Positions 13,154-28,141 of a stretch of 64,000 nt of DNA are shown piece after piece. Under the pieces are notes generated by a model. That model saw only the letters and a list, made by a program, of their open reading frames with translations, ran no database searches and was not told the DNA's origin. The stretch is from Promethearchaeota archaeon. GTDB lineage: Archaea > Asgardarchaeota > Lokiarchaeia > Sigyniarchaeales > SOKP01. The position numbers and the translations under genes were made by a program. Position 1 is the stretch's first letter, and each line of letters starts with the position of its first letter. Location: positions 1,082 to 65,081 of the forward strand of contig JBHLLU010000020.1 in assembly GCA_048938895.1 (NCBI GenBank). The letters run 5' to 3'.

Positions 13154-14359
13154 TTAATCTAAAGCTTGGTTAATTAAATCAGTTAAGTCAACCATTTTAA
13201 GACTAGAACCGAGATCTTTAATAGCATCTGCTAAATTCCTGTAGCAGAAAGGACACATACTCACAAGGAGTTCTGCACCTGTGTCTTCTGCTTCCTGTAT
13301 TCTACTTTTTGCAATTTCTAATGCTAAATCCGAAAATCCTTTCTTAACTCCTCCCCCAGCACCACAACACTTAGCACTCTGCTTGATTGTCTTCATTTCA
13401 GTTAGATCTGCAATTTTGTTTAATATCTCTCTTGGTTCCTCAAAAAGTCCCATATGTCTTCCTGTATGGCATGGATCATGATATGTCGCTTTTAATCCTA
13501 ATTTCTTCAACTGAACATTATTCTCTTTGAAGTATTTGTTTAGGAATTCAATTGTATGATACACAGTTATTCCTAAATCTTCCATATGGTCGGCGTAATC
13601 CTTTTTTAAAGTTCGATAACAACCAGCACAGCTTGTTACTATGGTTTTTATTCCACTTTTCTTAAAAAGTTCATAGTTCTTAGTAGCAACTGTATTAAAA
13701 GCTTTATGATCTCCTGTCCTCATTGCGACGCTTCCGCAACAGACTTCTTTTTCACCAAATACAGAAAAATCTATATCTAATTTCTTAAAAATCTGAGCTG
13801 TGTTAATTGCCACATTCTCTATATCTGGAGTTAATGCTGCAGTGCATCCTACAAAATATAATAGTTCTGTTGGTTCTGTGTTGGCATCTTTTACTTTGAA
13901 ATCAAGTTTCTCTAACCAACTTGCTTTAAGTTTATTATCTCTTTCATAAGGATTTAAAAGCTCAACCATAGCTTTATTCATCGGAACATGGGCTTCAAGA
14001 CCACATCCAGCATCAACTAGTTCAGCTCTCAGTGCTTCATATAAGGCAACATTGTCCATATCATATGCACAGGCTTCCGCACAGGTGTTGCAGGTCGGAC
14101 ATTGATATATTACCTCCGCCATTTCTTTACTTAACTCTAATTTGCCCTGCCAAAGTGAACGAATGATCTGCATTTTCCCTCTTGCGAAAAAGGGTTCAAA
14201 TCCAGAAGAATGGTCTCTTGCTACACAAACTCCCCATCTTGGTGGATCTGCGGTATAATCCGTTTGTTCTCTACAATCTCCACAAGCTATACATTGCAGT
14301 ATATTTGGACCAATTTTTGCCAAATGCTTGTACTTCTCTTTTGGATCAAATTCTGTCAT
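13154..14359 (-). CDS. GlcF/HdrD-like Fe-S oxidoreductase subunit (2x[4Fe-4S] + two CCG domains)
   Basis: CIACGDC, CPTCNTCAEAC, YFVGC, EVCCGS, TSCAGC, TYHDPCH, CCGAGGG, CPFC. Confidence 0.9.
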   Translation of the reverse strand: MTEFDPKEKYKHLAKIGPNILQCIACGDCREQTDYTADPPRWGVCVARDHSSGFEPFFARGKMQIIRSLWQGKLELSKEMAEVIYQCPTCNTCAEACAYDMDNVALYEALRAELVDAGCGLEAHVPMNKAMVELLNPYERDNKLKASWLEKLDFKVKDANTEPTELLYFVGCTAALTPDIENVAINTAQIFKKLDIDFSVFGEKEVCCGSVAMRTGDHKAFNTVATKNYELFKKSGIKTIVTSCAGCYRTLKKDYADHMEDLGITVYHTIEFLNKYFKENNVQLKKLGLKATYHDPCHTGRHMGLFEEPREILNKIADLTEMKTIKQSAKCCGAGGGVKKGFSDLALEIAKSRIQEAEDTGAELLVSMCPFCYRNLADAIKDLGSSLKMVDLTDLINQALD

Positions 14360-14363
14360 TTTT

Positions 14364-15899
14364 TTAATCCTCCTCTTCTACATAATAATCTTTAAATTTT
14401 GAATCATAAGTGTGAAGATGGAACTTATTTGGACTTAAAAGATAGTTAGGATCAACAGTCTTCTTCAAATCTCTAAAAAACTGTTCATATTCAGGAGTAA
14501 ACGCTCCTGCTTCAGTAACCGATTGTGAGATAGATTCTCCTAACCAGTAGTGAGCACCTCCATAACGGACTTGGTGTCGTATCTTCCTATGCCAGTTTTT
14601 CATGTTTTTATCCCTCTCTCCTTCTATATTTTTACCACCCACTCCTCCTAACACTACAAAATTACCGTTTGGTAAAAAATATAGCATTGAAGCAAAGATT
14701 CCAGGATATATAGCACCTATTCCCATCTCAACAGCGTGTTTCTTACTGAAATCAACTACTTTGGTAAATATCTCTCCCATGTGTGAAATGGGTACTTTAT
14801 GACAAGTTGCCATTGAAATCTGCGCAGGCATAGGTGAAATAGATGCCTGAAAGAAATGAAATGTACCTTCAAGATCATAACCAAATTTAGGTTCATCCTC
14901 CAAATCTGGTCTTAATAGTGAAGCAGGTACTCTCTCTGAATCATTCTTCATTATTTCTGTGAGTTTTTCTAATTTCAAATCTAATGTACTTTCTTCCATA
15001 GCTTCTATTGTTATATTCATTAGAGGTCCTCTACCTTCAATTGTTTGTCCCGTTCTCTTCTTAAATTCAGGCTTAGCCATTTGGATCATGATAGCTGGTA
15101 ACACTGAAAGATCTCTTAATCCCTCATTTATTTCGAATCGAATTTTGTGGGCTAATTTAAATACAGCATTATAGTCTTCTTTTTCAAGTACATACATACG
15201 AGCTTGTTTATATGGTGGATCAGGAAATAATCGCAGAATTGCTTTCGTTTTTATACCCATAGTGCCTACATCGCCCATAAAAAGACCTGTGAAGTCTGGT
15301 GAAACACCATAACGGCAGAAGGGTTGAGCATATTTATTTGCTTGAGAACCAGTTTTAATAATTGTTCCTTCTGGATTTGGTAAAACTGCTGTTACTCCTA
15401 AACAGATATCGGGAACTAAGCCATATTTCGTAGAGCCACCACCTGCAGTACTATTGGAAAGGCCACCGCCTATTGTTGCAGCGAATCCACTTCCAGGGCC
15501 GATTACTCCTGTAGTATAACCAGTAGGATGGAGATGTGATATGAGTGCACCCCAAGTGATCCCACAACCGACTACTACGTAGTAATCATCTTTGTTGAAT
15601 TCTTCCACTTGGTTCATTCGTGTAAGGTCTATAAGAATACCTTGTTCTGTAACGCTGCCTCCTACAAGATCAGCTCCTCCACCTCTAGGTACCATACGTA
15701 TTTTATACTTATTTGCGATTTTAACAATCTCTGACACTTCTTCAGTAGTTTCAGGACGCACTATTATATCAGCCCAACGATCAGGAAATGCAGGATCCAC
15801 ATTTCTTGAGTATGCGGCTTTCATAAAATCTTTGTCAGTTACATAGTCTTGTCCTACAACACTTTCAATCTCACTATATGCTTCTTTAACTTTTGAAAT
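14364..15899 (-). CDS. VAO/PCMH-family FAD-binding oxidoreductase, copy 1 (GlcD/AGPS-like); probable ATT start at 15899
   Basis: RPETTEEVS, PRGGGADLVGG, IDLTRMN, ATIGG, KYG, DP..LLSPNK; 25 homologous codons upstream of the ORF-track Met at 15824; stop codon 4 nt from the Fe-S partner start. Confidence 0.88.
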   Translation of the reverse strand: MSKVKEAYSEIESVVGQDYVTDKDFMKAAYSRNVDPAFPDRWADIIVRPETTEEVSEIVKIANKYKIRMVPRGGGADLVGGSVTEQGILIDLTRMNQVEEFNKDDYYVVVGCGITWGALISHLHPTGYTTGVIGPGSGFAATIGGGLSNSTAGGGSTKYGLVPDICLGVTAVLPNPEGTIIKTGSQANKYAQPFCRYGVSPDFTGLFMGDVGTMGIKTKAILRLFPDPPYKQARMYVLEKEDYNAVFKLAHKIRFEINEGLRDLSVLPAIMIQMAKPEFKKRTGQTIEGRGPLMNITIEAMEESTLDLKLEKLTEIMKNDSERVPASLLRPDLEDEPKFGYDLEGTFHFFQASISPMPAQISMATCHKVPISHMGEIFTKVVDFSKKHAVEMGIGAIYPGIFASMLYFLPNGNFVVLGGVGGKNIEGERDKNMKNWHRKIRHQVRYGGAHYWLGESISQSVTEAGAFTPEYEQFFRDLKKTVDPNYLLSPNKFHLHTYDSKFKDYYVEEED

Positions 15900-15941
15900 T
15901 TTAAATCACTTCTATATGTAAAAGTTATTTGATTTTGTTTA

Positions 15942-15970
15942 AATGTTGAATTTAATTTAATAGTTATTCT
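15942..15970 (-). promoter_or_regulatory. Putative archaeal promoter shared with the copy 2 upstream region
   Basis: Minus strand AGAATAACTATTAAATTAAATTCAACATT, closely similar to AGAATAATTATTAAATTTGATTCGACATT at 17592-17620; BRE/TATA-like. Confidence 0.5.
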
Positions 15971-16067
15971 TAATTCAACCTTCAATTTTAAAATGATTTA
16001 CAAATAATAGAACGGTTATTCTCAAAATTGTAAACAAAAATTTAAAAAAAGAAAGAGATTCTTTAAA

Positions 16068-17558
16068 TTAGTCTGGTTCTACATAATAATCTGCGAACTT
16101 TGAATCATATGTATGCAGATGAAACTTGTTGGGGGATAATAAATAATTGGGATCCACAGTTTTCTTAATATCCCTGAAGAATTGTTCATATTCTGGAGTA
16201 AAAGCTCCTGATTCAGTAACCGATTGCGAAATTGACTCCCCTAACCAATAGTGGGCACCACCATATCGTACTTGGGTTCTAATTTTTGAATGCCATAAGT
16301 TCATATTCCTTTCCCGCATTTCATCTTTATTTTCTCCCCCCACACCACCTAACACAACCATATTTCCATTAGGTAAGAAATATTGTGTTGCTTCAAATAT
16401 CCCTGGCATTACTGAACCTGGTATATCTTTTGCATGCCTATTATTCCAATCAACATTTTCATCATGAACATGACCCAATGTCGATATTGGAATTTTATGA
16501 CACGTTGCCATAGCAATTCTTCCAGGAACTGGAGAAATACCCGCCTGAAAGTAGTGAAAAGCTGCTTTCAGATTCGGTTGAGCATTAGCTCCCGGAGCAG
16601 CAGGCATCATAATGGTGTCTTCTTTCATGATATCTTCGAGAGTTTTAATATATTTCTCAAGAATGTCTAGTTCCATTGCTTCTAGTGTAACTGATACCCC
16701 TGGACCTTTAGCATTCGGTATTTTAAATTGTGCAAAATAAAAGGGTGGAAATGCACTTAAGCCAAGTAGGCCATCAGGAATTTCGTACCTAATTTTTTTA
16801 GCTAATAAAAAGACTTTATTATAATCATATTCCTTGAGGATAAAAGTTCTATTGGCTTTATAGGGATGTTCGCGATATATTCTCATATAAGCCTTGCATT
16901 TAATTCCCAAAGTTCCAACATCCCCCATGAACAAACCTGTAAAATCAGGTGATACTCCATATCTGCAGAAAGGCTTTGCATACTTATTTGCTGCTGAACC
17001 TGTTCTGATAATTGTACCTTCTGGATTTGGAAGTACTACCTCAACACCAAGACAATTATCTGGAACGAGACCATATTTAGTTGAGCCACCTCCAGCAGTA
17101 CTATTAGAAAGACCCCCTCCTATTGTTGCGGAGAACCCACTTCCCGGACCAGTCACTCCCGTTGTATAGCCCTCAGGGATTAATTGAGAAAGTAAATCTC
17201 CCCATGTGATTCCTACTCCCACTACAATATAGTAATCATCCTTGTTAAATTCCTCAAGTTTATTCATTCGTGTCAAATCAATTAATATGCCTTCTTCAGT
17301 AACACTTCCTCCTACTAAATCGGCACCGCCCCCTCTAGGAACCATACGCATTTTATATTTATTTGCGATTTTTACGATTTCTGACACTTCTTCGGTAGTT
17401 TCCGGTCTCACTATTATATCTGCCCATCTATCTGGAAATGCTGGATCTACATTTCTGGAGTATGCAGCTTTCATAAAATCTTTATCAGAAACATAATCTT
17501 CCCCAACAACACTCTCAATTTCACTATATGCTTCTTTAACTTTAGACAATTTTATCAC
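16068..17558 (-). CDS. VAO-family FAD-binding oxidoreductase, copy 2 (probable start TTG 17549)
   Basis: Same motifs as copy 1; C-terminal GGAHYWLGESISQS. Confidence 0.9.
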   Translation of the reverse strand: MIKLSKVKEAYSEIESVVGEDYVSDKDFMKAAYSRNVDPAFPDRWADIIVRPETTEEVSEIVKIANKYKMRMVPRGGGADLVGGSVTEEGILIDLTRMNKLEEFNKDDYYIVVGVGITWGDLLSQLIPEGYTTGVTGPGSGFSATIGGGLSNSTAGGGSTKYGLVPDNCLGVEVVLPNPEGTIIRTGSAANKYAKPFCRYGVSPDFTGLFMGDVGTLGIKCKAYMRIYREHPYKANRTFILKEYDYNKVFLLAKKIRYEIPDGLLGLSAFPPFYFAQFKIPNAKGPGVSVTLEAMELDILEKYIKTLEDIMKEDTIMMPAAPGANAQPNLKAAFHYFQAGISPVPGRIAMATCHKIPISTLGHVHDENVDWNNRHAKDIPGSVMPGIFEATQYFLPNGNMVVLGGVGGENKDEMRERNMNLWHSKIRTQVRYGGAHYWLGESISQSVTESGAFTPEYEQFFRDIKKTVDPNYLLSPNKFHLHTYDSKFADYYVEPD

Positions 17559-17591
17559 ATAATCAATATATAATTCAATTGATATTTTATT

Positions 17592-17620
17592 AATGTCGAA
17601 TCAAATTTAATAATTATTCT
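17592..17620 (-). promoter_or_regulatory. Putative archaeal promoter of copy 2
   Basis: Conserved with 15942-15970 and at an equivalent distance from the inferred start codon. Confidence 0.5.
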
Positions 17621-17685
17621 TTAATTGTTTTCTCTAAATAGCTGTTTCTTTCTTTAAAAGAATAAAAAAGTAGAAAGATGATTAT

Positions 17686-19230
17686 TTAATTATTATCATG
17701 TACAATGTAGTCAGAAAATTTACTATCATAACTATGAAGATGGAACTTATTAGGAGAGAGAAGGAAATTAGGATCTACCGTCTTCTTTATATCTCTGAAA
17801 AATTGTTCAAAATCTTCTGTAAATGCTCCTGCTTCTGTAATGGATTGACTAATTGATTCCCCAAGCCAGTAGTGTACTCCTCCATATCTCACTTGATATC
17901 GTATCTTTTTATGCCATAAATCCATCGAGAGCTGACGTTTTTCCTCAACATTGTCGGCGTTAAAACCACCAACAAAAATACAATTACCATTTGGCATAAA
18001 AGCAATAACACCAGCCCATATTGCCATAGTTCCAGAAGGATATGTCTTACTATGATCAATATCAAACTGTTGAGCTTTTTTTGACAATTCTGGTAGCCCA
18101 GACATAGGTACCTTATGGCAAGTTGTACAGGTAACCTTAGGAGGTGCCACAGAAATCAAATTATGGAAATAGTTGAAACTTGCTTTAAGATTATACTGCC
18201 AAGTATCAGGACGTTCCCGGTCTGGAGCCAATTCACCCATTGCGAAGGGGCGTGTCGCCTCGTCTTTCAACATAATATTATCAACTTTTTCAAGATATAC
18301 ATCCAAAATTCGTTGATCTGTCGCTTCTAAGTTTATCGCGGCTATTGGACCTTTAATTCTTACTCTAGGAGATCCTGGAGGTCTTTGAGCAGCCATAATC
18401 ATACTAATTTCATATGGTAATACACTTAAACCAAGCAATCCATCTCCTACCTCTTTTCTCAACTTATGAGCTTTCGCAAAGACCATATTGTAATCATTTT
18501 TACTGAATGCATATAATCGTGAAGCTTTATATGGAGGATCTGGGAAAAGTCGCATGAAGGCTTTTGTTTTAATACCTAAAGTCCCAACATCACCCATAAA
18601 TAATCCTGTAAAATCTGGAGATACACCATATCGACAGAAAGGTGTAGCATATTGATTAGAAGCGGCCCCAGTCTTTATGATTCTGCCCTCTGGTCCTGGT
18701 AACACGACCTCGACACCTAAACACACATCGGGAACTAATCCATATTTTGTAGAACCCCCTCCCGCAGTGCTATTTGATAAACCGCCACCGATTGTTGCTG
18801 AGAAACCGCTTCCAGGGCCGGTAACTCCGGATGTAAGACCCCTTGGATGTAATTCTGAGAGTAGTGCCCCCCATGTGACTCCACACTCAACTATATAATA
18901 AAAATCATCTTCATTAATCTCTAAAATCTTATTCATTCGAGTTAAATCAATTAAGATTCCTCCTTCAGTTGTGGATCCGCCAACCAGATCTGCACCACCA
19001 CCTCTTGGGACCATATGTATCTTGTATTTATTCGCAATCTTGACAATCTCAGATACTTCTTCAGTGGTTTCAGGACGTACGATCATATCAGCCCAGCGAT
19101 CAGGAAATGCAGGATCTACATTTCTTGAGTATGCGGCTTTCATAAAATCTTTATCAGTTATAAATTCATCTCCAACAACGTGTTCAATTTCCTTGTAAGC
19201 GTTTTTTACTTTTGAGATTTTTATCACCAT
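17686..19230 (-). CDS. VAO-family FAD-binding oxidoreductase, copy 3
   Basis: Same FAD-binding motifs; TCHK and GGVHYWLG. Confidence 0.9.
   Translation of the reverse strand: MVIKISKVKNAYKEIEHVVGDEFITDKDFMKAAYSRNVDPAFPDRWADMIVRPETTEEVSEIVKIANKYKIHMVPRGGGADLVGGSTTEGGILIDLTRMNKILEINEDDFYYIVECGVTWGALLSELHPRGLTSGVTGPGSGFSATIGGGLSNSTAGGGSTKYGLVPDVCLGVEVVLPGPEGRIIKTGAASNQYATPFCRYGVSPDFTGLFMGDVGTLGIKTKAFMRLFPDPPYKASRLYAFSKNDYNMVFAKAHKLRKEVGDGLLGLSVLPYEISMIMAAQRPPGSPRVRIKGPIAAINLEATDQRILDVYLEKVDNIMLKDEATRPFAMGELAPDRERPDTWQYNLKASFNYFHNLISVAPPKVTCTTCHKVPMSGLPELSKKAQQFDIDHSKTYPSGTMAIWAGVIAFMPNGNCIFVGGFNADNVEEKRQLSMDLWHKKIRYQVRYGGVHYWLGESISQSITEAGAFTEDFEQFFRDIKKTVDPNFLLSPNKFHLHSYDSKFSDYIVHDNN
18974..19107. 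repeat. Left arm of a 134-bp inverted repeat (partner 20275-20408)
   Basis: Manual comparison gives 2 mismatches in 134 nt; 18974-19071 is identical to the reverse complement of 20311-20408 (98 nt). Confidence 0.85.
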
Positions 19231-19382
19231 TTAATATAACATCAATTATTAAGAAATACGGGTGAGAAACTAATAAAAGTTTCTTTTTTATACGATTATG
19301 GCTACAACTGTATCAATAAAATAATACTTGAATATTGCAAAAGTTAAAATCAACTTTCAAAAATAGTAGTCATCGGTTCAGT

Positions 19383-20066
19383 TCATTCTGGTTTGCTATA
19401 ACGGTCTGGATATTCTTCAGCCCAAGTTTCCATTACTTCCTGGTGAGGAGCATCATTATAGACCCCTCGATCTTTTAAGTAGTCTACAAACGGTTCACCA
19501 TCTTTATTTGTACTTGCAAAAAGTCCATCTTTTTTTCCATCAAAATCCACCCATGGAAAGTTCTTTCTTATGCAGAGTTCTTTATCAAACGCACAGTTTG
19601 CTTCTACCCATTTACCATTTAGAAAAAGTTCCACAAACCCATGGAATATGAAAACATTGCTTCCCATTCTTGTTTTGAGATTTTCGCTAATCATATGGTT
19701 TACTATATCAACAAAATGAAGCCTTGAAGGGATTTCTACAGCTCTGGCTAAAGAAGCCAATAAAATTGCTTTTGGTATGCAAAATCCATAACCTTTCTTA
19801 AGAGTTAAACTTGATTTCCATTCTTCCTTATCGTATGATTTACGAGAATCTTTTACAGTATATTTAATACCATCGCGAACAAAATAAAATAGCTTAATTG
19901 CTTTTCCTATATCATCTTCAATTCCGTCAGTCAATTCTTTAGCTTTTTGCCGGATAGAAGGATGTTCCCAATCCATAAAAAAAGTAGGTTTCAGTGTTTC
20001 TTTAAAATCTTCGTTTAGATCTGTCATTAACTTCATAAAACTATATATCAATTTAATATTTTCCAA
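19383..20066 (-). CDS. Transglutaminase-like (Cys protease fold) protein
   Basis: LFYFVRDGIKY, GFCIPKAILLASLARA, FHGFVELFLNGKWV. Confidence 0.85.
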   Translation of the reverse strand: MENIKLIYSFMKLMTDLNEDFKETLKPTFFMDWEHPSIRQKAKELTDGIEDDIGKAIKLFYFVRDGIKYTVKDSRKSYDKEEWKSSLTLKKGYGFCIPKAILLASLARAVEIPSRLHFVDIVNHMISENLKTRMGSNVFIFHGFVELFLNGKWVEANCAFDKELCIRKNFPWVDFDGKKDGLFASTNKDGEPFVDYLKDRGVYNDAPHQEVMETWAEEYPDRYSKPE

Positions 20067-20154: not shown

Positions 20155-21699
20155 GTGTTAATAATTAGCAAGGTCAAAAATGCGTATAAGGAAATAGAAG
20201 ATATTATTGGTTCTGACTTTATCTCCGATGCTGATTTCACGAAAGCTGCATATTCAAGGAATGTTGACCCCGCGTTTCCTGATCGATGGGCTGATATGAT
20301 CGTACGTCCCGAAACCACTGAAGAAGTATCTGAGATTGTCAAGATTGCGAATAAATACAAGATACATATGGTCCCAAGAGGTGGTGGTGCAGATCTGGTT
20401 GGCGGATCTGTTTCAGAAGGGGGTATCTTAATAGATCTAACTCGTATGAATCAAATCCATGAAATCAATATAGATGATTATTATTGTGTTGTAGGATGCG
20501 GAATTACATGGGGTTCCATGCTTTCAGAATTACAGAAAAAAGGAGTGACCACAGGAATTTTAGGTCCTGGGAGTGGGTATTCTGCAACCATTGGAGGTGG
20601 TCTTTCAAATGCAACAGTAGGTTTTAGTTCAACCAAATATGGATTAGTTCCCGATATTTGTCTTGGAGTTGAGGTGGTACTTCCAAATCCGGAAGGTACG
20701 ATTATCCAGACAGGCTCTGCTGCGAATAAGTATGCAACCCCTTTTTGCAGATACGGGGTAGCACCAGACTTCACAGGGCTTTTTATGGGGGATGTAGGTA
20801 CTATGGGAATTAAATGTAAAGCCTATCTCAGATTATTTCCTGATCCACCATATAAAGCAAGAAGATATTATATGCTTTTAAAGGATGATTATAATAAGGT
20901 GTTCGAGTTAGGTCATAAACTTCGTAAAGAAGTTGGAGATGGTCTTAATGATTTGATGGTATTTCCTTTTATTTTAACTCAATTATTATATGGTCAGACT
21001 GTCAATAAACCGAGTAAAAGACCAAAATTGACTGGACCTGTTGTTTCAGTAACTCTTGATGCTTCTGACGAGAGAATTTTGGATATATATCTTGAAAAGG
21101 TTGAGGAAATTATGCTTAAGGATGAAGTTTCTCGATCATTTGAGTGGACAGAAATAGATCTAGATATGGTATTATCAAAAGATTGGAAGTTTACTTTAAA
21201 GGAAGAGTTCAATTTCTTTCAGAAGTATATTTCTATGGCACCTCCAAAGAGTTCGTGTACAACCTGCCATAAAGTAGCAATCTCACGGCTTAATGAAAGT
21301 GTTCAAAAAGGTGTACAATTCAATATAACCAACCAGAAGGAGTTTCCACCAGGTAATCCTCCATATCCTGTATTTGCTTCCTTCTTAATGTTTTTGCCTA
21401 ATGGAAATTGTGTGATTGTCGGAGGACTTGGTGGTGATAACACAGATGAACATCGCGAAACGACAATGAATATATGGCACAAGAAAATCAGACATCAAGT
21501 TCGTTATGGGGGTGCTCATTATTGGCTTGGTGAATCTATAAGTCAATCTATAGTTGAAGCTGGGGCTTATACTCCTGAATTTATGCAATTCTTTAAAGAT
21601 ATGAAAAAAACAGTTGACCCCAATTATCTCTTGAGCCCAAATAAATTCCATCTATATTCTTACGACCACGATTATACGGAACATCTCGTAGAAGATTAA
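20155..21699 (+). CDS. VAO-family FAD-binding oxidoreductase, copy 4
   Basis: Same motifs; divergently oriented relative to copy 3. Confidence 0.9.
   Translation: MLIISKVKNAYKEIEDIIGSDFISDADFTKAAYSRNVDPAFPDRWADMIVRPETTEEVSEIVKIANKYKIHMVPRGGGADLVGGSVSEGGILIDLTRMNQIHEINIDDYYCVVGCGITWGSMLSELQKKGVTTGILGPGSGYSATIGGGLSNATVGFSSTKYGLVPDICLGVEVVLPNPEGTIIQTGSAANKYATPFCRYGVAPDFTGLFMGDVGTMGIKCKAYLRLFPDPPYKARRYYMLLKDDYNKVFELGHKLRKEVGDGLNDLMVFPFILTQLLYGQTVNKPSKRPKLTGPVVSVTLDASDERILDIYLEKVEEIMLKDEVSRSFEWTEIDLDMVLSKDWKFTLKEEFNFFQKYISMAPPKSSCTTCHKVAISRLNESVQKGVQFNITNQKEFPPGNPPYPVFASFLMFLPNGNCVIVGGLGGDNTDEHRETTMNIWHKKIRHQVRYGGAHYWLGESISQSIVEAGAYTPEFMQFFKDMKKTVDPNYLLSPNKFHLYSYDHDYTEHLVED
20275..20408. repeat. 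Right arm of a 134-bp inverted repeat (partner 18974-19107)
   Basis: See left arm. Confidence 0.85.
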
Positions 21700-21730: not shown

Positions 21731-22777
21731 TTAATTTAAAAGAGAATTAAAATTGAGTTTTCTAAAGTTTGAGAATCCCCGCTTTGCAGTCTTTTTTTGC
21801 AATTCTATGAGCATTTTATTCATCATTTTAAAGAATGGGAATTTTTGAAGATCAGAGTCACCTTTCATTTTGATAACATATGCTGGTTCATTAATTTTGG
21901 GTGTTTTAAACCTCATATATCCTCCGGGAGTATATAATTTATCAGTTAGTATCTCTAATTCTACAGAAATATCAAATTTTGATAAGACATCAAAATATGA
22001 ATTCCATTCTTCCTCATTACTGGGAAGGGTTAGTGGTTTTCTGTTATCATATAATGTAGCACTGTCTATTCTCAATTCACTTCCATCAATTTCACCGAAT
22101 AATACCACAATCCAGAGAAACCTCCATAAAAATTCTTCTCTAGTTTTGTACATTTCAAGACCTGCAACTGTATCAATACCCTTTATATTCAAATTTGAAT
22201 TAGCAATTTCAAGTAGCTTTTCATAGACAAATTTGAAGCTTTCATTCTTAAATTCTCCTGCTAATTTAGTAATTTCAGGTTTATGAACTACGGGTTTTGG
22301 GTTTTTAATCTGAGTATTTTTTAATTTACTCCGAATCTCATTGAGATTTTCCATTGCGTCAAACATTTTAATATAATTTTCGTATTCATTATCGTCAATT
22401 TCTTTTCCTAATTTTTCTGATACTTTTTCCCTTGTTATATTATTTCGTGCCACTGTATTTGCACAGGGAAATCGTCCGCAATATGCACAATTTTGAATCT
22501 CATTATATTCTCCACATTTTCTTGTACGACATTTTTTTAAGAAATTAAAAAAAGGATGACTTGGTAGTTCATTATTTGGAGTAAGACAACCAACACAACC
22601 CTCCCATTCATATTTAACCGGTTTAAATCCAATATAACTTTTAATCTGTATAGAATATTTTTCCCAATTTTCTTTACCAATTTTTTTTCGCATGTGGGTT
22701 GACCAAGGGCATTCAGAACAGATGTTTCCACATCTTGAAATTATTTGTTTCATTAGTTTTTCACTATTTTTATTCAA
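21731..22777 (-). CDS. DUF3795-like Cys-rich (Fe-S/Zn) domain protein with C-terminal extension
   Basis: SRCGNICSECP...CVGC...CRTRKC...NCAYCGRFPC. Confidence 0.75.
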   Translation of the reverse strand: MNKNSEKLMKQIISRCGNICSECPWSTHMRKKIGKENWEKYSIQIKSYIGFKPVKYEWEGCVGCLTPNNELPSHPFFNFLKKCRTRKCGEYNEIQNCAYCGRFPCANTVARNNITREKVSEKLGKEIDDNEYENYIKMFDAMENLNEIRSKLKNTQIKNPKPVVHKPEITKLAGEFKNESFKFVYEKLLEIANSNLNIKGIDTVAGLEMYKTREEFLWRFLWIVVLFGEIDGSELRIDSATLYDNRKPLTLPSNEEEWNSYFDVLSKFDISVELEILTDKLYTPGGYMRFKTPKINEPAYVIKMKGDSDLQKFPFFKMMNKMLIELQKKTAKRGFSNFRKLNFNSLLN

Positions 22778-22862: not shown

Positions 22863-24113
22863 TTAAATTGCTTCTAATATGTGCACACACATAGCTGCGG
22901 GACCTGAACCAATTGTTCCGCCACCATTTTCAGCTAGAGCGAATTTAGGATTATTAACTTGCCTTTTGCCCGCATCTCCACGTAACTGCAATACAAGTTC
23001 ATAGATTTGTGCTAAACCTGAAGCACCAAGAGGATGTCCACGTGATAATAAACCCCCACTTGGATTTACAGGAATTTTTCCTCCAAGTTCTGTCTCCCCG
23101 CTTTCACTAAATGGACCTCCTTTCCCTAATGGACAAAATCCCATTTGTTCAATCTGTTCTAATTCTCCATAAGCAGTAGCATCATGAACTTCAGCTACAT
23201 TTATATCTTTTGGGGTAAGGTCTGCTATTTTATACGCCGCTGAAGAGGCTCTTTGTGACACATTATCTTTGCCCCAAGAACCGGATCGCAGAATTGATGC
23301 TCTAACTAATATTGCTTTGTCATTTGGGTGTTCTTTTAGGAATTTTTCAGAACAAAGAATTGCAGCAGCAGATCCATCTCCTACTGGAGCACACATCGCT
23401 CTAGTTAGGGGGTAAGCTACCTCATAGTCTTCCATTACCTGTTCTACAGTCATAGGAAACGTATATTGAGCAAGTGGATTTAGTGTAGAATTGTTATGAT
23501 TCTTTGCGGCGATTGCAGCAAGTTGACGTTGGGTTGTTCCATACTCTTTCATGTGTGCTCGTGCCCCTGCTGCATAGAAATCCATAAAGACTGAGTGTCC
23601 TCCTTTTTTTTCTCCCTTCTTTTCTCCACTTTTTTCTGTTTTCTCCGCTCTTTCTTTAGCTGCTTTTTGCATCTGTGCTATCATACTTCTTGTCATTTCG
23701 ACATCTGTATAAGTCATAAAACCTCCCATCATTTTTGATCGATCTTCTTGATATACTTTTTCGGTACCTATGGCTAAAGCACAGTCAACTACTCCCGCTT
23801 TAATCGCTGTCCATGCACCATTGAATGCTGTACTCCCACTGGCACATGCATTTTCCACATTAGTAATCGGTACTTTATCAACACCGTTGGGTGTGAGCGC
23901 TACTTGTCCTCGGATGCTATGCTGAAAATCGGTCATTCCCCAACCTGTATTTGAAAACCATGCTGCTTCGATATTTTTTAAATCGAAATTATTGTCTTCT
24001 TGAAGAGATTTAAGAGCCTCCCTAGTCAAGTTTTTGATACTTTTATCAAGGAATTTACCAAACTTCGTCATACCAACACTATATACATAAACTTTATCGC
24101 TTATATTCATCAC
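22863..24113 (-). CDS. SCP-x-type thiolase
   Basis: GMTKFGK, VENACASGSTA, AEVHDA, NPSGGLLSRGHPLGASG. Confidence 0.92.
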   Translation of the reverse strand: MMNISDKVYVYSVGMTKFGKFLDKSIKNLTREALKSLQEDNNFDLKNIEAAWFSNTGWGMTDFQHSIRGQVALTPNGVDKVPITNVENACASGSTAFNGAWTAIKAGVVDCALAIGTEKVYQEDRSKMMGGFMTYTDVEMTRSMIAQMQKAAKERAEKTEKSGEKKGEKKGGHSVFMDFYAAGARAHMKEYGTTQRQLAAIAAKNHNNSTLNPLAQYTFPMTVEQVMEDYEVAYPLTRAMCAPVGDGSAAAILCSEKFLKEHPNDKAILVRASILRSGSWGKDNVSQRASSAAYKIADLTPKDINVAEVHDATAYGELEQIEQMGFCPLGKGGPFSESGETELGGKIPVNPSGGLLSRGHPLGASGLAQIYELVLQLRGDAGKRQVNNPKFALAENGGGTIGSGPAAMCVHILEAI

Positions 24114-24195
24114 CTAACAAATAAATAAAAATTATTTTTACAAAATTAATGATTTTAATTATTAATTTCGGTTATATATAAGGTATAAATAAGGA

Positions 24196-24624
24196 TTATA
24201 ACTTTTGTAAAGCTTCTACAAACGCACGAGTAATCTCTCCATAATTAATTGCATCTTGGAGATTTCCTTCAATAACTAAATCACCAGATAAATATTCTTC
24301 CTGGCCATCACTTTCCATACTCAGTATTTTTCCCACTATTTCCCAAGTTGCTTTCATTGTATAATTAGGTTCTTTTGCTTCACCTTCTCCGTAGTCGAAA
24401 ACACCATCACCAGCACTATACCAGAACGATGTGTCTTTATCAGTTATAATGATTTGCCCAACAATTTTCTCGATTTCCAATGCTTCTTTTAAATCCTCAT
24501 CCTCAACTGATAATTGCTTTGTGAGTTCAAATAATTTTAAAAAATTCATTGGATCTTCTTTCAATTTGCTTTTTGAAGTCAATTTTCTAACTTCTTTAGC
24601 CAATTTCATATCAACTATTTTCAT
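24196..24624 (-). CDS. SCP2 sterol/lipid-binding domain protein (b)
   Basis: YGEGEAKEPNYTMKA...YLSGDLVIEGNLQDA. Confidence 0.85.
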   Translation of the reverse strand: MKIVDMKLAKEVRKLTSKSKLKEDPMNFLKLFELTKQLSVEDEDLKEALEIEKIVGQIIITDKDTSFWYSAGDGVFDYGEGEAKEPNYTMKATWEIVGKILSMESDGQEEYLSGDLVIEGNLQDAINYGEITRAFVEALQKL

Positions 24625-24745
24625 TCAACTCCAATTTTGTTAACTATAAAGAAATAAAGTACCATATTATTGATAATAATTTCTAAATTACGAAATTACT
24701 AGATTGAGGTAAAAAAGAAAAAAAATAATAATATTTCCGAACTGA

Positions 24746-25180
24746 TTATCCTTGCCCAAGTCTTTGTAGGGCTTCGACAGCTATTCGCATGAATTCGGCA
24801 TAACCCATCACATCTTGGAGATTTCCTTCGATAACAAGATCTCCAGACATGTAAGCCGCTGTACCATCAACCTCTCCTGACATCATTCCCCCCATTGTTT
24901 CCCAATTAGCCTTCATTGTGAAAGAGGGATCATCAGTGTCTCCTTCTCCATATTCAAATTCACCATCTCCAGAACTAAGCCAGTATTTAAAATCCTTATC
25001 ATTAACAACCATTTGGCCAATAATTTTATCCATATCTTCTAGTTCTTCTTTTAATTCTTCGTCTTCTGCTGCAACTTGTTTTACTAATTCCAGCAATTTT
25101 AGGATATTTTTTGGATCTTCTTTCATCGTACCCTTTTCAGTCATTTCTCTAACTTCCATAGCTAAATTTAAATCAACCAT
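24746..25180 (-). CDS. SCP2 sterol/lipid-binding domain protein (a); start revised to ATG 25180
   Basis: YGEGDTDDPSFTMKA...AAYMSGDLVIEGNLQD; GAGGT SD precedes ATG 25180. Confidence 0.88.
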   Translation of the reverse strand: MVDLNLAMEVREMTEKGTMKEDPKNILKLLELVKQVAAEDEELKEELEDMDKIIGQMVVNDKDFKYWLSSGDGEFEYGEGDTDDPSFTMKANWETMGGMMSGEVDGTAAYMSGDLVIEGNLQDVMGYAEFMRIAVEALQRLGQG

Positions 25181-25397
25181 TTTTAAAACCTCATTTTGTT
25201 TTGTTATTAAATTCAATATTTATCTTTAGATTTCGTTTTGTGTTAAACAAGTATTATTGATTGTGAACATTATTAAATATTATTCTTTATCATTAACATC
25301 TTAAAGCCTATTCCATTTAATCAAAACCTATTTAAATTTGGGATACTTCTCTTTTTCTTAAAAATTTATTTAAAGACATAAGATGAATAATTAAATC

Positions 25398-26906
25398 ATG
25401 AATGCTATTCAAAACGCATATGAGGAAATTGAAAATGTTGTAGGAACTAAATATGTTACTGATTCTGAACCTATTTGTTATTCTTATTCAATGAATTGTG
25501 ACTTTACATTACAAGGAATTCCGGATATAGTAGTGAAGCCAAATACACCAGAAGAAATCTCTGAAATATTGAAAATTGCTAATAAATATAAAACACCTAT
25601 CATTCCTAGGGGAAATGGTGCTGATTTGACTGGAGGATCTAAACCCATTGGTGATGGAGGGATAGTTTTAGATGTTACTCGAATGAACAAAATATTAGAT
25701 GTTGATGAGGATAATATGATTGTTACTGTAGAAGTTGGAATTTCATGGAGCGAGCTATGTGAACAGCTTAGTAGAGTTGGAATTGGATACTATACTGGAA
25801 CAACGGGTCCCGCTTCTGGATTCTCTGCTACTATTGGCGGAGGGCTTTCTAATAATACAGTCGGTGGTGGAGGTGCCGCTATGTATGGTGCTGTAACAGA
25901 ACAATGTGTTGGATTAGAAGTCGTCTTACCAACAGGGGAGATTATATACACAGGAGCGAAAGCGAATTCTTTTCGTGATAAACCATTTACTAGATTTGGT
26001 TTAGGCGCAGATTATTCTGGTATATTTTTAGGTGATGTTGGAATTCACGGGATTAAAACTAAAGCATCATTCAATATCTTTCCACTTCCTGAATATAGAG
26101 GATATGCCACTTATGTAATTAAAAGAGTCAAAGGGCAGACTCCTACAGAACGAGTGACAGATTTAATGGTCAAATGGCAACATCATAGATTACAGTTGCA
26201 TGATTTCTTTTATTATCCTCCCAGTAATGTGGTTGGATTAACGTCACGAAATATTGTGAAAGGTTTGGCAAATAAATCAGTTAGAGGAGGTGTTTTATAC
26301 TATACTACCGTAGCCGATACTCAAAAACAATTGGATTATAACATAGAAAGAATTGAAAAATATGCTGAAGAAGCTGAATTCGAAAGATTAGGAGATACAA
26401 TAGAAGAAGGAAATGTAGGAAAATGGTTTTATGAAGAAAATGGAAAATGGCAATGGTCAGACAATAGTTGGGGGGGTGGATTTATATTTACAATGAGTGC
26501 CTGTCTCAAAACTCCCACAAATCTATTACCTAAATATAGTATGATGTATGATGAATGGACTAAAAGGAATTTTCCAAAAATGCAAGAAATCGGACCTGGT
26601 GGAGCTGCTAGTTATATTGCATTTGGTGTCTATCCATGTTACATTGATGTTGCAGGTGGTGCTGGCGCTATGAGTACAATAGAACACCGAGAAAAACAAC
26701 AAGAATTATGGAAGGATCTAATTATTACCCAAATTAAAGAACTGGGTGGTGTGCACTACTGGATGGGCGAAATTATTGGAAGAGCGTTAGTTGACTCTGG
26801 AGCCTTATCAGAAGAGTATTATAATTTTATGATTACAATCAAGAAAGCTCTTGATCCTAACAGAATATTAAGCCCAGGTAAATTTTATTTAACAGATAAA
26901 TATTAA
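25398..26906 (+). CDS. VAO-family FAD-binding oxidoreductase, copy 5 (divergent)
   Basis: PRGNGADLTGG, DVTRMN, SATIGG, GGVHYWMGE, DPNRILSPGK. Confidence 0.9.
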   Translation: MNAIQNAYEEIENVVGTKYVTDSEPICYSYSMNCDFTLQGIPDIVVKPNTPEEISEILKIANKYKTPIIPRGNGADLTGGSKPIGDGGIVLDVTRMNKILDVDEDNMIVTVEVGISWSELCEQLSRVGIGYYTGTTGPASGFSATIGGGLSNNTVGGGGAAMYGAVTEQCVGLEVVLPTGEIIYTGAKANSFRDKPFTRFGLGADYSGIFLGDVGIHGIKTKASFNIFPLPEYRGYATYVIKRVKGQTPTERVTDLMVKWQHHRLQLHDFFYYPPSNVVGLTSRNIVKGLANKSVRGGVLYYTTVADTQKQLDYNIERIEKYAEEAEFERLGDTIEEGNVGKWFYEENGKWQWSDNSWGGGFIFTMSACLKTPTNLLPKYSMMYDEWTKRNFPKMQEIGPGGAASYIAFGVYPCYIDVAGGAGAMSTIEHREKQQELWKDLIITQIKELGGVHYWMGEIIGRALVDSGALSEEYYNFMITIKKALDPNRILSPGKFYLTDKY

Positions 26907-26917
26907 AGGCGGGAGTT

Positions 26918-28141
26918 ATGACTGTGATAAAAGAACAATTAGAAAATTTAAGCAAATTAGAAGAAGCTGCTTTAGCATGTGCACAATGTGGACAGTGTAG
27001 AGCAAAAAATTTTCCTGTCAAGGGAATATTTTACAGTTGCCCGGTTTATAAGGCAAATCAGTCGTTTGAAGTATACAATGCCCGGGGTAAAAACATCATC
27101 ATGAAAGGGCTTCTATGGGGGCATTTAAAGCTCAGTCAAGATATCAGTGACGTAATATTCCAATGTACACTCTGTGGTCTTTGTGAACAAGTTTGTTTTA
27201 CATCTCATAATGAAAATTTTGATTTTCCTTTATCTCACCTAATGGATCATGTCAATACATACGAAGCCTTAAGAGCGGATTTAGTAGCAGCAGGATTTCC
27301 AATAGAATCACAAGTTCCCATGAATAAAGCAATGATGGAATTATATAATCCATACGAACGAGATAATAAAGAAAAGCATAATTGGATTGAAGAACTAGAT
27401 TTCAAAATTAAAGACGCTTGGAAAGAAGATGCTGAAACTCTATATTTTGTAGGATGCACATCGGCTTTAACTCCTCAAATAAAACCTGTTGCTGTAGCTA
27501 CTGCTAAAATATTCAATAAACTAGGAGAGGATTTTTCAATATTTGGTGAACATGAAGTATGTTGTGGAAGTGTAGGGATGAGAACCGGAGATCGAAATTC
27601 TTTTGAAAAAGTAGCTGAAGAGAATGCAAAATTATTTAGAGAAAGAGGAATAAAGAGGATTATTACTAGCTGTGCGGGTTGTTATAGAACATTTAAGAGA
27701 GATTATGGTGATAAATTGGGAGGCATTGAAATTCTACATTCGGTCGAATATCTCAAAGATATTATAACTAAAAATAAATCTAAATTGAAGAATTTAGGCA
27801 TTAAAACCACATATCACGATCCATGCCATCTTGGAAGGCACATGGGTATCTATGAAGAACCACGAGATATACTAAGTAAAATTTCAGATTTAACAGAAAT
27901 GAAGACAAACCGTTTTGCTGCTATGTGTTGTGGAGCGGGAGGTGGAGTACGAAAAGGATTTCCAGAATTATCTATGGACATGGCTAAAAACAGAATTAAA
28001 GAAGCTGAAGAAACAGAAGCAGAATATTTGGTTAGTACTTGTCCGTTCTGTTATCGAAATTTATCAGATGCCATAGAAGAACTTGATTCAAATCTTAAAA
28101 TGGTTGATTTAGTTGAGTTAATTTTAGAATCTCTCTCTTAA
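26918..28141 (+). CDS. GlcF/HdrD-like Fe-S oxidoreductase subunit (CCG domains)
   Basis: CAQCGQC, CTLCGLCEQVC, CCGS, TYHDPCH, CCGAGGG; 11 nt downstream of copy 5. Confidence 0.9.
   Translation: MTVIKEQLENLSKLEEAALACAQCGQCRAKNFPVKGIFYSCPVYKANQSFEVYNARGKNIIMKGLLWGHLKLSQDISDVIFQCTLCGLCEQVCFTSHNENFDFPLSHLMDHVNTYEALRADLVAAGFPIESQVPMNKAMMELYNPYERDNKEKHNWIEELDFKIKDAWKEDAETLYFVGCTSALTPQIKPVAVATAKIFNKLGEDFSIFGEHEVCCGSVGMRTGDRNSFEKVAEENAKLFRERGIKRIITSCAGCYRTFKRDYGDKLGGIEILHSVEYLKDIITKNKSKLKNLGIKTTYHDPCHLGRHMGIYEEPRDILSKISDLTEMKTNRFAAMCCGAGGGVRKGFPELSMDMAKNRIKEAEETEAEYLVSTCPFCYRNLSDAIEELDSNLKMVDLVELILESLS

Follow-up and report, generated by a model that had tools for sequence, protein, structure and literature searches.

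A 64,000-nt stretch of a Promethearchaeota archaeon genome (GCA_048938895.1, contig JBHLLU010000020.1, positions 1,082 to 65,081 of the forward strand; hereafter the window) encodes five VAO/PCMH-type flavoproteins (c1–c5) and two CCG (HdrD-like) iron-sulfur proteins (CCG_a and CCG_b), which we think probably represent Asgard-specific cytoplasmic flavo-iron-sulfur dehydrogenases with a rebuilt active site and a thiol/disulfide-type acceptor, c1–c4 being isoenzymes. The array is of interest for its FAD enzyme, as yet uncharacterised, in which the customary metal-binding catalytic residues are missing and whose genes lie beside those of heterodisulfide-reductase-like Fe-S partners. All seven genes were recovered where a first-pass annotation of the window had placed them.

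A forward-strand DsrE/DsrE/DsrH-like trio (7646..8747; PF02635 twice and PF04077) and CCG_a flank two 2,4-dienoyl-CoA-reductase-like genes, each a fusion of OYE and pyridine-nucleotide-disulfide-reductase domains (8781..12979; PF00724 with 202 and 221 bits, plus PF07992). The reverse strand then carries CCG_a, a soluble HdrD/TfrB-like Fe-S subunit (13154..14359; 401 aa; PF02754 twice, 123 bits), c1 (14364..15824; 486 aa as called; 128 bits), c2 (16068..17558; 496 aa; 132 bits), c3 (17686..19230; 514 aa; 132 bits) and, between c3 and c4, a transglutaminase-core-like protein (19383..20066; PF01841, 51 bits). On the forward strand lie c4 (20155..21699; 514 aa; 128 bits), the distant paralogue c5 (25398..26906; 502 aa; 123 bits) and CCG_b (26918..28141; 407 aa; PF02754 twice, 128 bits). 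The flavoprotein scores (123–132 bits) are for PF01565 (FAD_binding_4), with a cut-off of 26.4 bits. The c1 open reading frame as called begins 29 codons late; its frame is open upstream to about 15902 (513 aa). Codons for the conserved N-terminus can still be recognised upstream, but they are shifted by one base against the ancestral start and are not in frame with the GTG start. Direct coupling to a CCG subunit had been claimed for c1 and c5 only. These are indeed the only copies abutted by a CCG gene (CCG_a 4 nt downstream of c1, CCG_b 11 nt downstream of c5), but the claim needs qualification, as a single string of genes read in one direction runs from the transglutaminase-like gene through c3, c2 and c1 to CCG_a, and c4 is transcribed divergently from this string, 88 nt away. 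No RNA run containing the region was among those listed.

AF2 models of c3 and c5 (pLDDT 92.5 and 91.4) predict a flavoprotein fold closest to the D-2-hydroxyacid dehydrogenases. Mouse LDHD (mLDHD) is the closest structure to c3 (Z 36.1, rmsd 3.0, 448 residues) and matches the c5 model with Z 38.1, with D2HGDH (Z 34.0 for c3 and 35.4 for c5) and LctD (33.8 and 36.2) ranked, like mLDHD, above the 4-phenol oxidases (Z approximately 30–34). Profile comparison is in agreement, the family profile matching mLDHD over the full length with an E-value of 6.5e-77 and Escherichia coli GlcD with an hhalign probability of 99.9 (E 9e-36). No solved structure matches c1–c5 above threshold, the best solved relative being 22% identical, and no NCBIfam equivalog reaches its cut-off for c1–c5 (GlcD TIGR00387, 111–126 bits versus 567.9; YdiJ, far under its cut-off), while PF02913 gives 18.2 bits on c5, under the cut-off of 21.2. 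Together with the substitution of the canonical residues described below, these results bear out the earlier assignment to an uncharacterised dehydrogenase subfamily. In two trees, as in the phylogenetic check that had been proposed, the window flavoproteins fall outside the rows with canonical motifs, among which is E. coli GlcD. Database searches found the family almost confined to Asgard archaea, with some members labelled 'glycolate oxidase' in the source databases.

The motif scan reproduced the motifs listed earlier. HYWLGE occurs in c1–c4 (at position 425 of c1) and HYWMGE in c5 (453); TCHK in c1–c4 (340 in c1) corresponds to ACLK in c5 (368), leaving Cys and Lys unchanged throughout the five copies; LPNGN or MPNGN occurs in c1–c4 (LPNGN384 in c1) and is absent from c5. 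The motifs HHH, HxG[DN]GNxH and GEHG are absent from all of c1–c5, in line with the statement that these proteins differ here from their nearest characterised families. Among the nearest 120 database clusters, TCHK is kept in 120, HYW[LM]GE in 119 and xPNGN in 104, and in the family alignment [STA]C[HL]K and HYW[LM]GE are each present in 97 of 97 rows and the remaining motif in 75 of 97; judged by this conservation, the family motifs are not chance. The HYW-bearing rows are not monophyletic (AU p 1e-7), so c1–c4 may not have a single derived site in common with c5.

Pairwise identity is 63–71% within c1–c4 and 35–39% between any of these and c5. Near-invariant FAD domains and C-termini with a divergent centre had been described for c1–c4, and this holds in 40-column windows: columns 1–220 are mostly 75–100% identical and the last ~70 columns 70–95%, against 21–55% in columns 261–400 of the central ~200 residues. 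In the proposed comparison of selection across copies, synonymous sites are saturated, indicating that c1–c4 are old. Each of the four copies falls in a separate clade of the tree (c1, 8 rows, SH-aLRT 99; its sister c2, 8 rows, support 100; c3, 7 rows, support 100; c4, 13 rows, support 100, nearest to single-copy forms of other Asgard genomes). Central-domain identity is 78–87% inside clades versus 35–49% across them, and dN/dS within clades is 0.06–0.12 in the central domain and 0.03 in the FAD domain. Clade-specific positions are concentrated in the central region (16 of 19); positions 341–343 and 347 immediately precede the counterpart of the helix that carries LDHD Arg347/Trp351, and 408–410 come just ahead of the His398 equivalent. 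These alignments support a central domain that separates the paralogues and is under purifying selection inside every orthologue group, and indicate that c1–c4 are four old, specialised copies and c5 a distant one.

The order of flavoprotein then CCG gene recurs widely across the 58 loci of the flavoprotein family used for neighbourhood counts. A CCG gene is present in 39 loci. It comes immediately after the flavoprotein gene in 17 of the 19 other loci of c5 type and, among the 67 flavoprotein runs that leave room for a downstream gene, in 35, the latter fraction being explained partly by intervening genes for an acetoacetate-decarboxylase-fold (ADC-fold) protein. In the source genome, which holds 54 CCG domain matches, 7 of 8 VAO-type matches outside the window have a CCG match no more than about 3 kb away. 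Recurrent neighbours in other Asgard genomes are the ADC-fold protein, CoA ligases, OYE reductases, SDRs and the DsrEFH-like trio. An OYE-fusion-cluster gene is found in 20 of 58 loci and a DsrE- or DsrH-like match of any kind in 18 of 58; two Cys of the DsrE1-like protein are conserved in 17 of 17 rows, and a reciprocal test placed the trio in the wider cluster, not strictly beside the flavoprotein. The transglutaminase-like gene keeps its position in close relatives (L001–L005, L013, L033). Elsewhere in the window, genes at 44001..51327 (by Pfam assignment three SDRs, CoA ligase c, a small ORF, a cation-efflux gene and OYE_c) have orthologues with 52–76% identity directly adjoining VAO-CCG(-ADC) in loci L011, L014–L016, L025, L043 and L044 of other Asgard genomes.

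In many Asgard loci a single CCG gene accompanies two flavoprotein genes, as in VAO-ADC-VAO-CCG, which invites a different reading, that the paralogues are subunits of one GlcDEF-like hetero-oligomer in which a catalytic D-like subunit is paired with E-like partners and all share a CCG subunit. The E. coli genes glcD, glcE and glcF are likewise adjacent and encode two VAO-type subunits and one CCG subunit, anaerobic benzene degraders are described with GlcDEF-like FAD/Fe-S/FAD trios (ORM2a proteins 24–26 and BzS1_12970–12990, in the available portions of PMC13101534 and PMC13416013), and the near-invariant FAD domain and C-terminus could form a shared dimer interface. However, c1–c4 each carry every family motif and a full-length cap, unlike the very divergent 350-aa GlcE; many loci have a single flavoprotein gene and a single CCG gene, with 29 one-gene runs followed directly by CCG; and every paralogue's cap is under separate purifying selection. 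We therefore regard the hetero-oligomer as rather unlikely, though the strongest competitor to isoenzymes.

CCG_a and CCG_b are 57% identical, and in each of them the ferredoxin-type Cys motif occurs twice, as does a complete C-x(n)-CC-x(n)-CxxC motif. TfrB is their best NCBIfam match (229 and 204 bits, below the cut-off of 385), the GlcF equivalog gives 50–57 bits versus a cut-off of 333, and CCG_a matches the PDB profiles 9ojn (1.6e-43) and HdrB 5odc (7e-19). The TfrB match, the abundance of CCG proteins in this anaerobic host and the OYE-type reductases among the recurrent neighbours would fit a TfrAB-like, thiol-driven reductase, in which the CCG subunit oxidises thiols and the flavoprotein reduces a keto or enoyl compound. 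This direction is improbable given the sub-threshold TfrB scores, a VAO-type flavoprotein unlike TfrA, and characterised relatives at the top of the fold and profile matches that are dehydrogenases or oxidases.

As far as the available text of the mLDHD paper goes, Mn is bound by His398, His405 and Glu442 and the substrate by Arg347 and His443, the latter acting as base, and mutation of any of the five abolishes activity. In alignments at about 22% identity, within a loop of differing length, all of these His/His/Glu/Arg/His positions are substituted in the window flavoproteins, c3 having Ser, Phe, Ile, His and Tyr in the HMMER alignment. Subject to the same limits, the Tyr of HYW aligns in three alignments with the catalytic His of LDHD and GlcD and with the last His of the AGPS HHH loop, and the Cys of TCHK with a conserved Asp of the xDxxVP strand, next to the LDHD subsite-B residue Ser365. 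Whether Glu442 is replaced by the His of HYW differs between the HMMER and hhalign alignments, and the His, Cys and Asn of the family could form a different metal site. An ordinary D-lactate, glycolate or D-2-hydroxyacid dehydrogenase, with metal and substrate ligands supplied by other residues, would accord with the closest matches (LDHD, LctD, D2HGDH and GlcD), the 'glycolate oxidase' labels and the His kept in the HYW loop. We give this reading little credence, since all five activity-essential mLDHD residues are replaced, the GlcD and YdiJ equivalogs score far under their cut-offs, other VAO-type genes of the source genome could do such jobs, and a single small substrate ill fits four conserved paralogues with different caps. 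The action on lipids, ether lipids or glycerolipid head groups suggested by the first-pass annotation is very improbable: AGPS is a recognisable relative (profile E 4e-62; Z 31.3 for c5) likewise without a metal site, and the window holds two SCP2 genes and thiolases, but AGPS comes after both the hydroxyacid dehydrogenases and the phenol oxidases for c5 and is not among the 50 structure matches listed for c3, the HHH loop is absent, the SCP2 genes accompany thiolase 1 on the opposite strand and did not turn up beside six c5 orthologues (58–72% identity), and no lipid-biosynthesis neighbour recurs in the 58 loci.

The preferred reading, of flavo-iron-sulfur dehydrogenases, would involve two subunit types, a FAD subunit of LDHD/GlcD fold and an HdrD/TfrB-like subunit with two putative ferredoxin-type clusters and two CCG sites. 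Neither the Mn/Zn site nor the Arg/His pair, by which a 2-hydroxy-carboxylate is bound and deprotonated, appears to survive in the FAD subunit, where a conserved strand with Cys-x-Lys and loops with Asn-Gly-Asn and His-Tyr-Trp take their place. With these changes, the substrate would most likely be one held without chelation through an alpha-hydroxy-carboxylate, and its hydride would pass to FAD N5 with Tyr (or His) acting as base. Electrons would then move through the Fe-S clusters to the CCG site and, by analogy, most likely reduce a thiol/disulfide-type acceptor. Since c1–c4 combine the same FAD core with different cap domains, each probably acts on a different substrate within a single CoA-ester/keto-acid catabolic island; it is plausible that they dock on one shared Fe-S subunit, presumably CCG_a, with c5 pairing with CCG_b.

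Among known systems, LDHD (8jd*), human D2HGDH (6lpn) and Acetobacterium woodii LctD (7qh2) share the two-domain fold over about 450 residues (Z 34–38, rmsd 2.7–3.1) and the FAD-binding domain, but they are only about 20% identical overall and differ in that the LDHD Mn ligands, Arg347 and His443 are all replaced and the PF02913 cut-off is unmet in the window flavoproteins, and in their partner, which is ETF or the respiratory chain instead of a CCG protein. AGPS shares a VAO/PCMH fold without a metal site and is a more distant match than LDHD, the window proteins lacking its HHH, its N-terminal extension and a lipid gene context. E. coli GlcDEF resembles the window in having a VAO-type gene ahead of one whose product combines a pair of ferredoxin-type motifs with a pair of CCG domains; GlcD is 23% identical and carries HAGDGNMH and GEHG, neither of which is found in the window proteins, and the window has no short GlcE-type subunit. 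To our knowledge, the GlcDEF CCG subunit has no known role in disulfide reduction, which makes the disulfide acceptor a weak inference. The benzene-degrader sets, divergent and from strict anaerobes, lie among CoA ligase, CoA transferase and hydratase genes; they are bacterial, are likened to the window proteins by description and, in the available portions of PMC13101534 and PMC13416013, have one of two flavoproteins without the C-terminal domain, whereas all five window copies are full length. TfrB aligns with CCG_a and CCG_b over its C-terminal ~340 residues, and HdrB of solved Hdr complexes aligns with them too (E 7e-19), with both five-Cys CCG motifs intact; scores are under every equivalog cut-off, and the flavoprotein partner is related to neither TfrA nor HdrA. 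Fused HdrD/GlcD forms of ~900 aa carry HAGDGN[LF]H and GEHG, unlike the unfused window family, which has neither. The HdrD/GlcD units of Bathyarchaeia, Methanomethylicia and Korarchaeia, interpreted as lactate dehydrogenases, unlike the window family, similarly combine a GlcD-type flavoprotein with an HdrD-type CCG protein in hosts without methyl-coenzyme M reductase, and in the available part of that report are proposed to couple lactate oxidation to the reduction of heterodisulfide and possibly of other heterodisulfides (PMC10667645).

Five genes for VAO/PCMH-type flavoproteins (c1–c5) and two for CCG-domain Fe–S subunits (CCG_a and CCG_b) lie at 13154–28141 of the window, at exactly the coordinates that the first-pass annotation had given. 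The minus strand carries, in order, a transglutaminase-like gene, c3 (17686–19230), c2 (16068–17558), c1 (14364–15824) and CCG_a (13154–14359), with gaps of 152, 127, 243 and 4 nt, while c4 (20155–21699, +) is divergent from this string with 88 nt between, and CCG_b (26918–28141, +) begins 11 nt after c5 (25398–26906, +). The G+C content of the window is ~33%, and its closest database proteins are those of Promethearchaeota, Lokiarchaeia, Hodarchaeota, and Heimdall-, Hel- and Hermodarchaeota bins, which places the organism among the Asgard archaea. The start of c1 is unusual: 29 conserved N-terminal codons (15825–15910, −) precede the ATG called as its start, but their frame is shifted by one base relative to the ancestral GTG start, and a TGA stands before the open frame. 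The contig of run X1 at depth 35 shows no difference from the window in this region; low-depth contigs of X1 and X2 part from it at 15902, which would restore an in-frame start, and an internal Met is the start in three of eight c1-clade rows, the window included. No RNA run was listed for 13100–22000, the runs compared all being DNA contigs. Two Cys-rich DUF3795 proteins are also encoded in the window (21731–22777, −; 62455–63033, +), the former directly after c4, a place that it also holds in two close relatives (L003, L013). A small protein (54796–55329, −) is similar to the eukaryote-type OST3/OST6 family over that family's C-terminal part (E 1.9e-10), and a thioredoxin gene ~2 kb away (52454–52855, −) is itself a weak OST3/OST6 match.

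All five flavoproteins match PF01565 (FAD_binding_4) with 123–132 bits (cut-off 26.4), and AF2 models of c3 (pLDDT 92.5) and c5 (pLDDT 91.4) display the two-domain fold (FAD and cap) superposable on solved members of the VAO/PCMH superfamily, with Z values of 30–38 over 445–475 residues against LDHD, D2HGDH, EUGO, PCMH and VAO. Mouse LDHD (mLDHD) gave Z values of 36.1 for c3 and 38.1 for c5 (rmsd 3.0 and 2.8 over ~450 residues), followed by other D-lactate dehydrogenases, LctD and D2HGDH (33.8–34.0 and 35.4–37.1) and the 4-phenol oxidases (~29–33 and ~31–34); AGPS was absent among the 50 structural matches listed for c3 and had a Z of 31.3 for c5. The 4-phenol oxidising VAO/PCMH/EUGO group, whose marks are a covalent FAD link and a Tyr/Tyr/Arg phenolate site, was compared by fold scores only, and these lie below LDHD. 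The family profile matched the same enzymes (mLDHD E 6.5e-77, LctD 5e-67, AGPS 4e-62, PCMH 8e-57) and aligned with E. coli GlcD at an hhalign probability of 99.9. Kinship to PF02913 (FAD-linked oxidase C-terminal) is visible by profile and fold only: c1–c4 have no match to this domain at E ≤ 0.01, and c5 scores 18.2 bits, below the 21.2 cut-off and over its last 25 residues only. An ESM Atlas search with the C-terminal part returned only PF02913-type clusters, and the C-terminal 282 residues of c3 alone gave only spurious matches to PDB sequences (best E 0.016). None of the NCBIfam equivalog cut-offs was reached by the window flavoproteins, including those for GlcD (TIGR00387, 111–126 bits vs 567.9; NF008408, 48–67 vs 897).

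In the published mLDHD study, Mn is bound by His398, His405 and Glu442, whereas Arg347 and His443 bind the substrate and the latter serves as base; alanine variants at all five residues are inactive (PMC10589216). The FAD subunit encoded here is built on the LDHD fold, with the LDHD catalytic set gone. In c3, the HMMER alignment places Ser, Phe, Ile, His and Tyr against Arg347, His398, His405, Glu442 and His443, respectively, and with the hhalign alignment also considered the metal-ligand and catalytic positions align with Phe (or Pro), Ile (or Val), His (or a gap) and Tyr. At the position of Arg347, which contacts the C1 carboxylate, c1–c4 have Thr/Ala/Ser/Glu and c5 has Lys, in a helix alignment that is moderately reliable. 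Neither HxGDGNxH nor GEHG, which supply the metal ligands (two His and one Glu) and catalytic His of the metal-dependent D-2-hydroxyacid dehydrogenases (LDHD, D2HGDH, GlcD), occurs in c1–c5; in the hhalign alignment to GlcD the first loop is moved by two residues, a three-residue deletion precedes the Tyr, no His falls at either ligand position and the Tyr of the HYW motif lies opposite the catalytic His. In the alignment to AGPS, this Tyr is matched to the final His of the HHH loop, which has a catalytic role in that enzyme, reads shhHGVG in 2uuu and is absent from all five copies.

In place of these residues, [STA]C[HL]K and HYW[LM]GE are present in all 97 family rows (97/97 each), with TCHK in 96/97 and xPNGN in 75/97. 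Within the TCHK motif, the Cys and Lys are the sole residues invariant across all five copies, and the Cys lies opposite the conserved Asp of an xDxxVP strand, beside LDHD subsite-B Ser365. The residues predicted to face the flavin were placed by alignment rather than from model coordinates. The family lacks the residues that 2-hydroxyacid chemistry requires, and its public labels, 'FAD-binding oxidoreductase' and 'glycolate oxidase', are therefore probably wrong. Flags of '1 TAG' or '1 TGA inside' on c5-like matches raised recoding (Sec or Pyl at the active site), which was rejected since the translated matches have no internal stop; the flags most likely reflect the terminal stops of the genes themselves.

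A protein search of 1.84 billion representatives returned 603 proteins at E ≤ 1e-30, among which the only full-length clusters resembling the window proteins were P0121 (c1–c4 type) and P0122 (c5 type); the motifs are missing from the clusters that come after these. In trees built from 140 and from 70 rows, c1–c4 and P0121 formed one clade (support 100), nested in a 17-row clade (support 99) whose other members are c5, P0122 and ten rows that lack HYW. Rows with canonical HxGDGNxH/GEHG, including E. coli GlcD, fall outside the 17-row clade in both trees, so that the phylogenetic check came out in favour of the earlier proposal of a separate dehydrogenase subfamily. The 12 HYW-bearing rows are not monophyletic (AU p 1e-7), and HYW is therefore either ancestral with several losses or convergent between c1–c4 and c5. 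The 58 loci with family members in other genomes comprise 52 titled Asgard, 4 'uncultured archaeon', 1 Bathyarchaeota bin and 1 bacterial Deferrimicrobium bin; the genes in the last two (L057 and L045) share 89% and 64% identity with c4, respectively, and their placement, for L057 on a 2.7-kb contig, could be due to mis-binning or gene transfer. A c4-like gene (E ≤ 1e-150) was detected in 25 of 201 sampled genomes of the phylum, with 19/40 genomes of the window's own family and 5/6 of one other family positive; sampling of 25 further families yielded none. Orthologues of c5 (58–73% identity) are present in 6 other genomes.

The four related copies share 63–71% identity with one another and 35–39% with c5. 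Sliding-window identity among c1–c4 is mostly 75–100% over the first ~220 columns, falls to 21–55% over columns 261–400 and returns to 70–95% over the C-terminal ~70 columns, bearing out the pattern of conserved FAD domain and C-terminus around a divergent centre that had been noticed from the sequence. Gene conversion, which would account for the near-identical FAD domains, was rejected: the same codon is used at only 46–49% of identical residues in every pair, c5 pairs alike, and dS between paralogues is 1.5–3 or not computable. Because of this uniform codon identity and high dS, the similarity of c1–c4 is old and the array is not a recent duplication. In a family tree of 97 rows (the window and the 58 loci), c1 (8 rows), c2 (8), c3 (7) and c4 (13) formed separate orthologue clades (SH-aLRT 99–100), with those of c1 and c2 as sisters. 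Central-region identity is 78–87% within these clades vs 35–49% between them, and dN/dS within clades is low throughout (FAD domain 0.027–0.034, central region 0.06–0.12, C-terminus 0.02–0.07). Sixteen of the 19 clade-fixed positions differing among at least three clades lie in the central region; clade-specific positions 341–343 and 347 are just ahead of the helix equivalent to the LDHD Arg347/Trp351 helix, and 408–410 just ahead of the His398-equivalent. The cap domain is constrained in each paralogue and different between paralogues, and c1–c4 therefore resemble specialised isoenzymes rather than decaying copies, most likely serving different substrates. Taken with the missed equivalogs, the replaced LDHD residues and the conserved motifs, these clade-specific caps support the initial description of an uncharacterised subfamily with a rebuilt active site and a variable cap.

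The protein encoded beside the FAD subunit is a soluble HdrD/TfrB-like subunit. CCG_a and CCG_b each contain two PF02754 domains (123 and 128 bits, cut-off 20.6, two stretches each), two ferredoxin-type Cys motifs and two complete five-Cys CX(n)CCX(n)CXXC motifs (at 172–247 and 297–372 in CCG_a; at 180–255 and 303–378 in CCG_b). Both score below the NCBIfam cut-offs for TfrB (229/204 vs 385), GlcF (50/57 vs 333), GlpC (80/78 vs 278), DsrK (87/66 vs 400) and HdrB (69/62 vs 345). A CCG gene is present in 39/58 c1–c4-type loci and directly follows 35 of the 67 flavoprotein runs with room downstream; at other c5-like loci it directly follows the flavoprotein in 17/19, the remaining two having an SDR between or no CCG gene in the flank. 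In the window's own genome (4.65 Mb), CCG domains are matched 54 times (roughly at least 27 proteins), a large expansion of HdrB/HdrD-like proteins. The same genome has 13 VAO-type matches, and of the eight outside the window seven have a CCG match within ~3 kb. The flavoprotein-then-CCG gene order is general, and this adjacency is the basis on which a physical complex of the two is putatively assigned. All of c1–c4 may use CCG_a as a shared acceptor, and they may also pair among themselves in the manner of GlcD and GlcE.

Elsewhere among Asgard genomes, the pair is most often joined by an acetoacetate-decarboxylase (ADC)-fold protein, encoded in 31/58 loci, followed by a CoA ligase (20), an OYE + PNDR reductase (20), a DsrH-like protein (17), DsrE-like proteins as two separate genes (16 each), an SDR (13), a nitroreductase–ferredoxin fusion (11), a GNAT-like protein (11) and a thiolase (9). 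The typical order elsewhere is DsrE, DsrE, DsrH, (GNAT), VAO, ADC, VAO, CCG, ADC, and then SDRs, CoA ligase c, a small ORF, a cation-efflux gene and an OYE gene. The window keeps orthologues of both flanks of this cluster, with MarR, methyltransferase, an unnamed gene and a DsrE/DsrE/DsrH-like trio at 3.4–8.7 kb, and SDRs, CoA ligase c, the small ORF, the cation-efflux gene and the OYE gene at 44–51 kb; the stretch that separates these flanks holds the expanded flavoprotein array and another ~16 kb of CoA-ester genes. No ADC-fold gene occurs in the window, the single genomic copy being on another contig. ADC-fold proteins match PF06314 (162–187 bits; e.g. L047 11484–12266 and 15176–15937, L014 12766–13563) and retain a G-x-P-K-K stretch, which presumably holds the Schiff-base Lys of acetoacetate decarboxylase and hints at keto-acid chemistry beside the flavoprotein.

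The trio (7646–8747, +) recurs at loci L014–L016, L019, L020, L042–L044, L047–L049 and L054, and its DsrE1-like protein keeps two Cys in 17/17 rows. A strict link between trio and flavoprotein was nevertheless rejected by a reciprocal test: among 15 DsrE1 orthologues, DsrH is followed by a CoA ligase or a GNAT-like gene in 4 cases each, by the flavoprotein and by ADC once each, and by an unidentified gene in 5, so the trio belongs to the wider cluster and not to the flavoprotein alone. Four genomes of the same genus have the trio without the flavoprotein, a CoA ligase coming directly after it. At L047, an IS605 OrfB/TnpB-type gene (Cas12f1-like TNB domain; 7738–9015, +) stands between the DsrH-like and GNAT-like genes, and another contig of the window's genome carries two DsrE-family matches ~1.5 kb from a CCG protein.

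Lipid or ether-type substrates, suggested in the first-pass annotation, did not find support, as the AGPS HHH loop is absent and SCP2 was not found beside six c5 orthologues. Two SCP2-domain genes do stand ahead of thiolase 1 on the same strand (22863–25216, −), similar to a thiolase–SCP2 (SCPx-type) arrangement in split form; SCP2 as a partner of c5 was rejected because none was found in the 1.5-kb flanks of these six orthologues (58–72% identity). The window has hydratases, SDRs and thiolases and no acyl-CoA dehydrogenase, but the idea that the flavoproteins stand in for one was dismissed given 16 PF00441 matches elsewhere in the genome.

Most likely, an organic substrate passes hydride to FAD, and the electrons then reach the CCG site by way of the two ferredoxin-type clusters; by analogy with Hdr, Tfr and the published interpretation of archaeal HdrD/GlcD units, a thiol/disulfide-type acceptor would be reduced there. 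A wider scheme, which we consider unlikely as a whole, is that the flavoprotein–CCG pairs would be substrate-specific electron entry points into a thiol/disulfide or protein-persulfide pool in Asgard archaea. The neighbouring DsrEFH-like Cys proteins would be candidate carriers, and HdrABC–Mvh-type complexes might re-oxidise the pool. Cys-x-Lys and His-Tyr-Trp would then form a catalytic site that is metal-free and new to the LDHD fold, acting on substrates without an alpha-hydroxy-carboxylate, e.g. 3-hydroxy or keto-acid precursors passed to the ADC-fold decarboxylase encoded nearby.

Eukaryotes have no closer known relatives than the Asgard archaea, whose energy metabolism has, to our knowledge, been inferred almost wholly from annotation. 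Knowledge of the substrates of these enzymes, and above all of the electron acceptor at the CCG subunit, would inform the question of the role of heterodisulfide-reductase-like proteins in archaea without methanogenesis, and the four paralogues with separately constrained caps offer a natural set for specificity work on a conserved flavin core. No description of the subfamily was found in the literature covered, subscription papers on Lokiarchaeon metabolism lying beyond its scope. The array is of the same kind, a GlcD-like flavoprotein with a CCG Fe–S partner, as E. coli GlcDEF, the archaeal HdrD/GlcD units (PMC10667645) and the GlcDEF-like proteins of anaerobic benzene degraders (PMC13101534, PMC13416013). 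It differs from these known flavoprotein–CCG systems in its conserved active-site residues, its almost exclusively Asgard distribution and its array of four paralogues in one sublineage.
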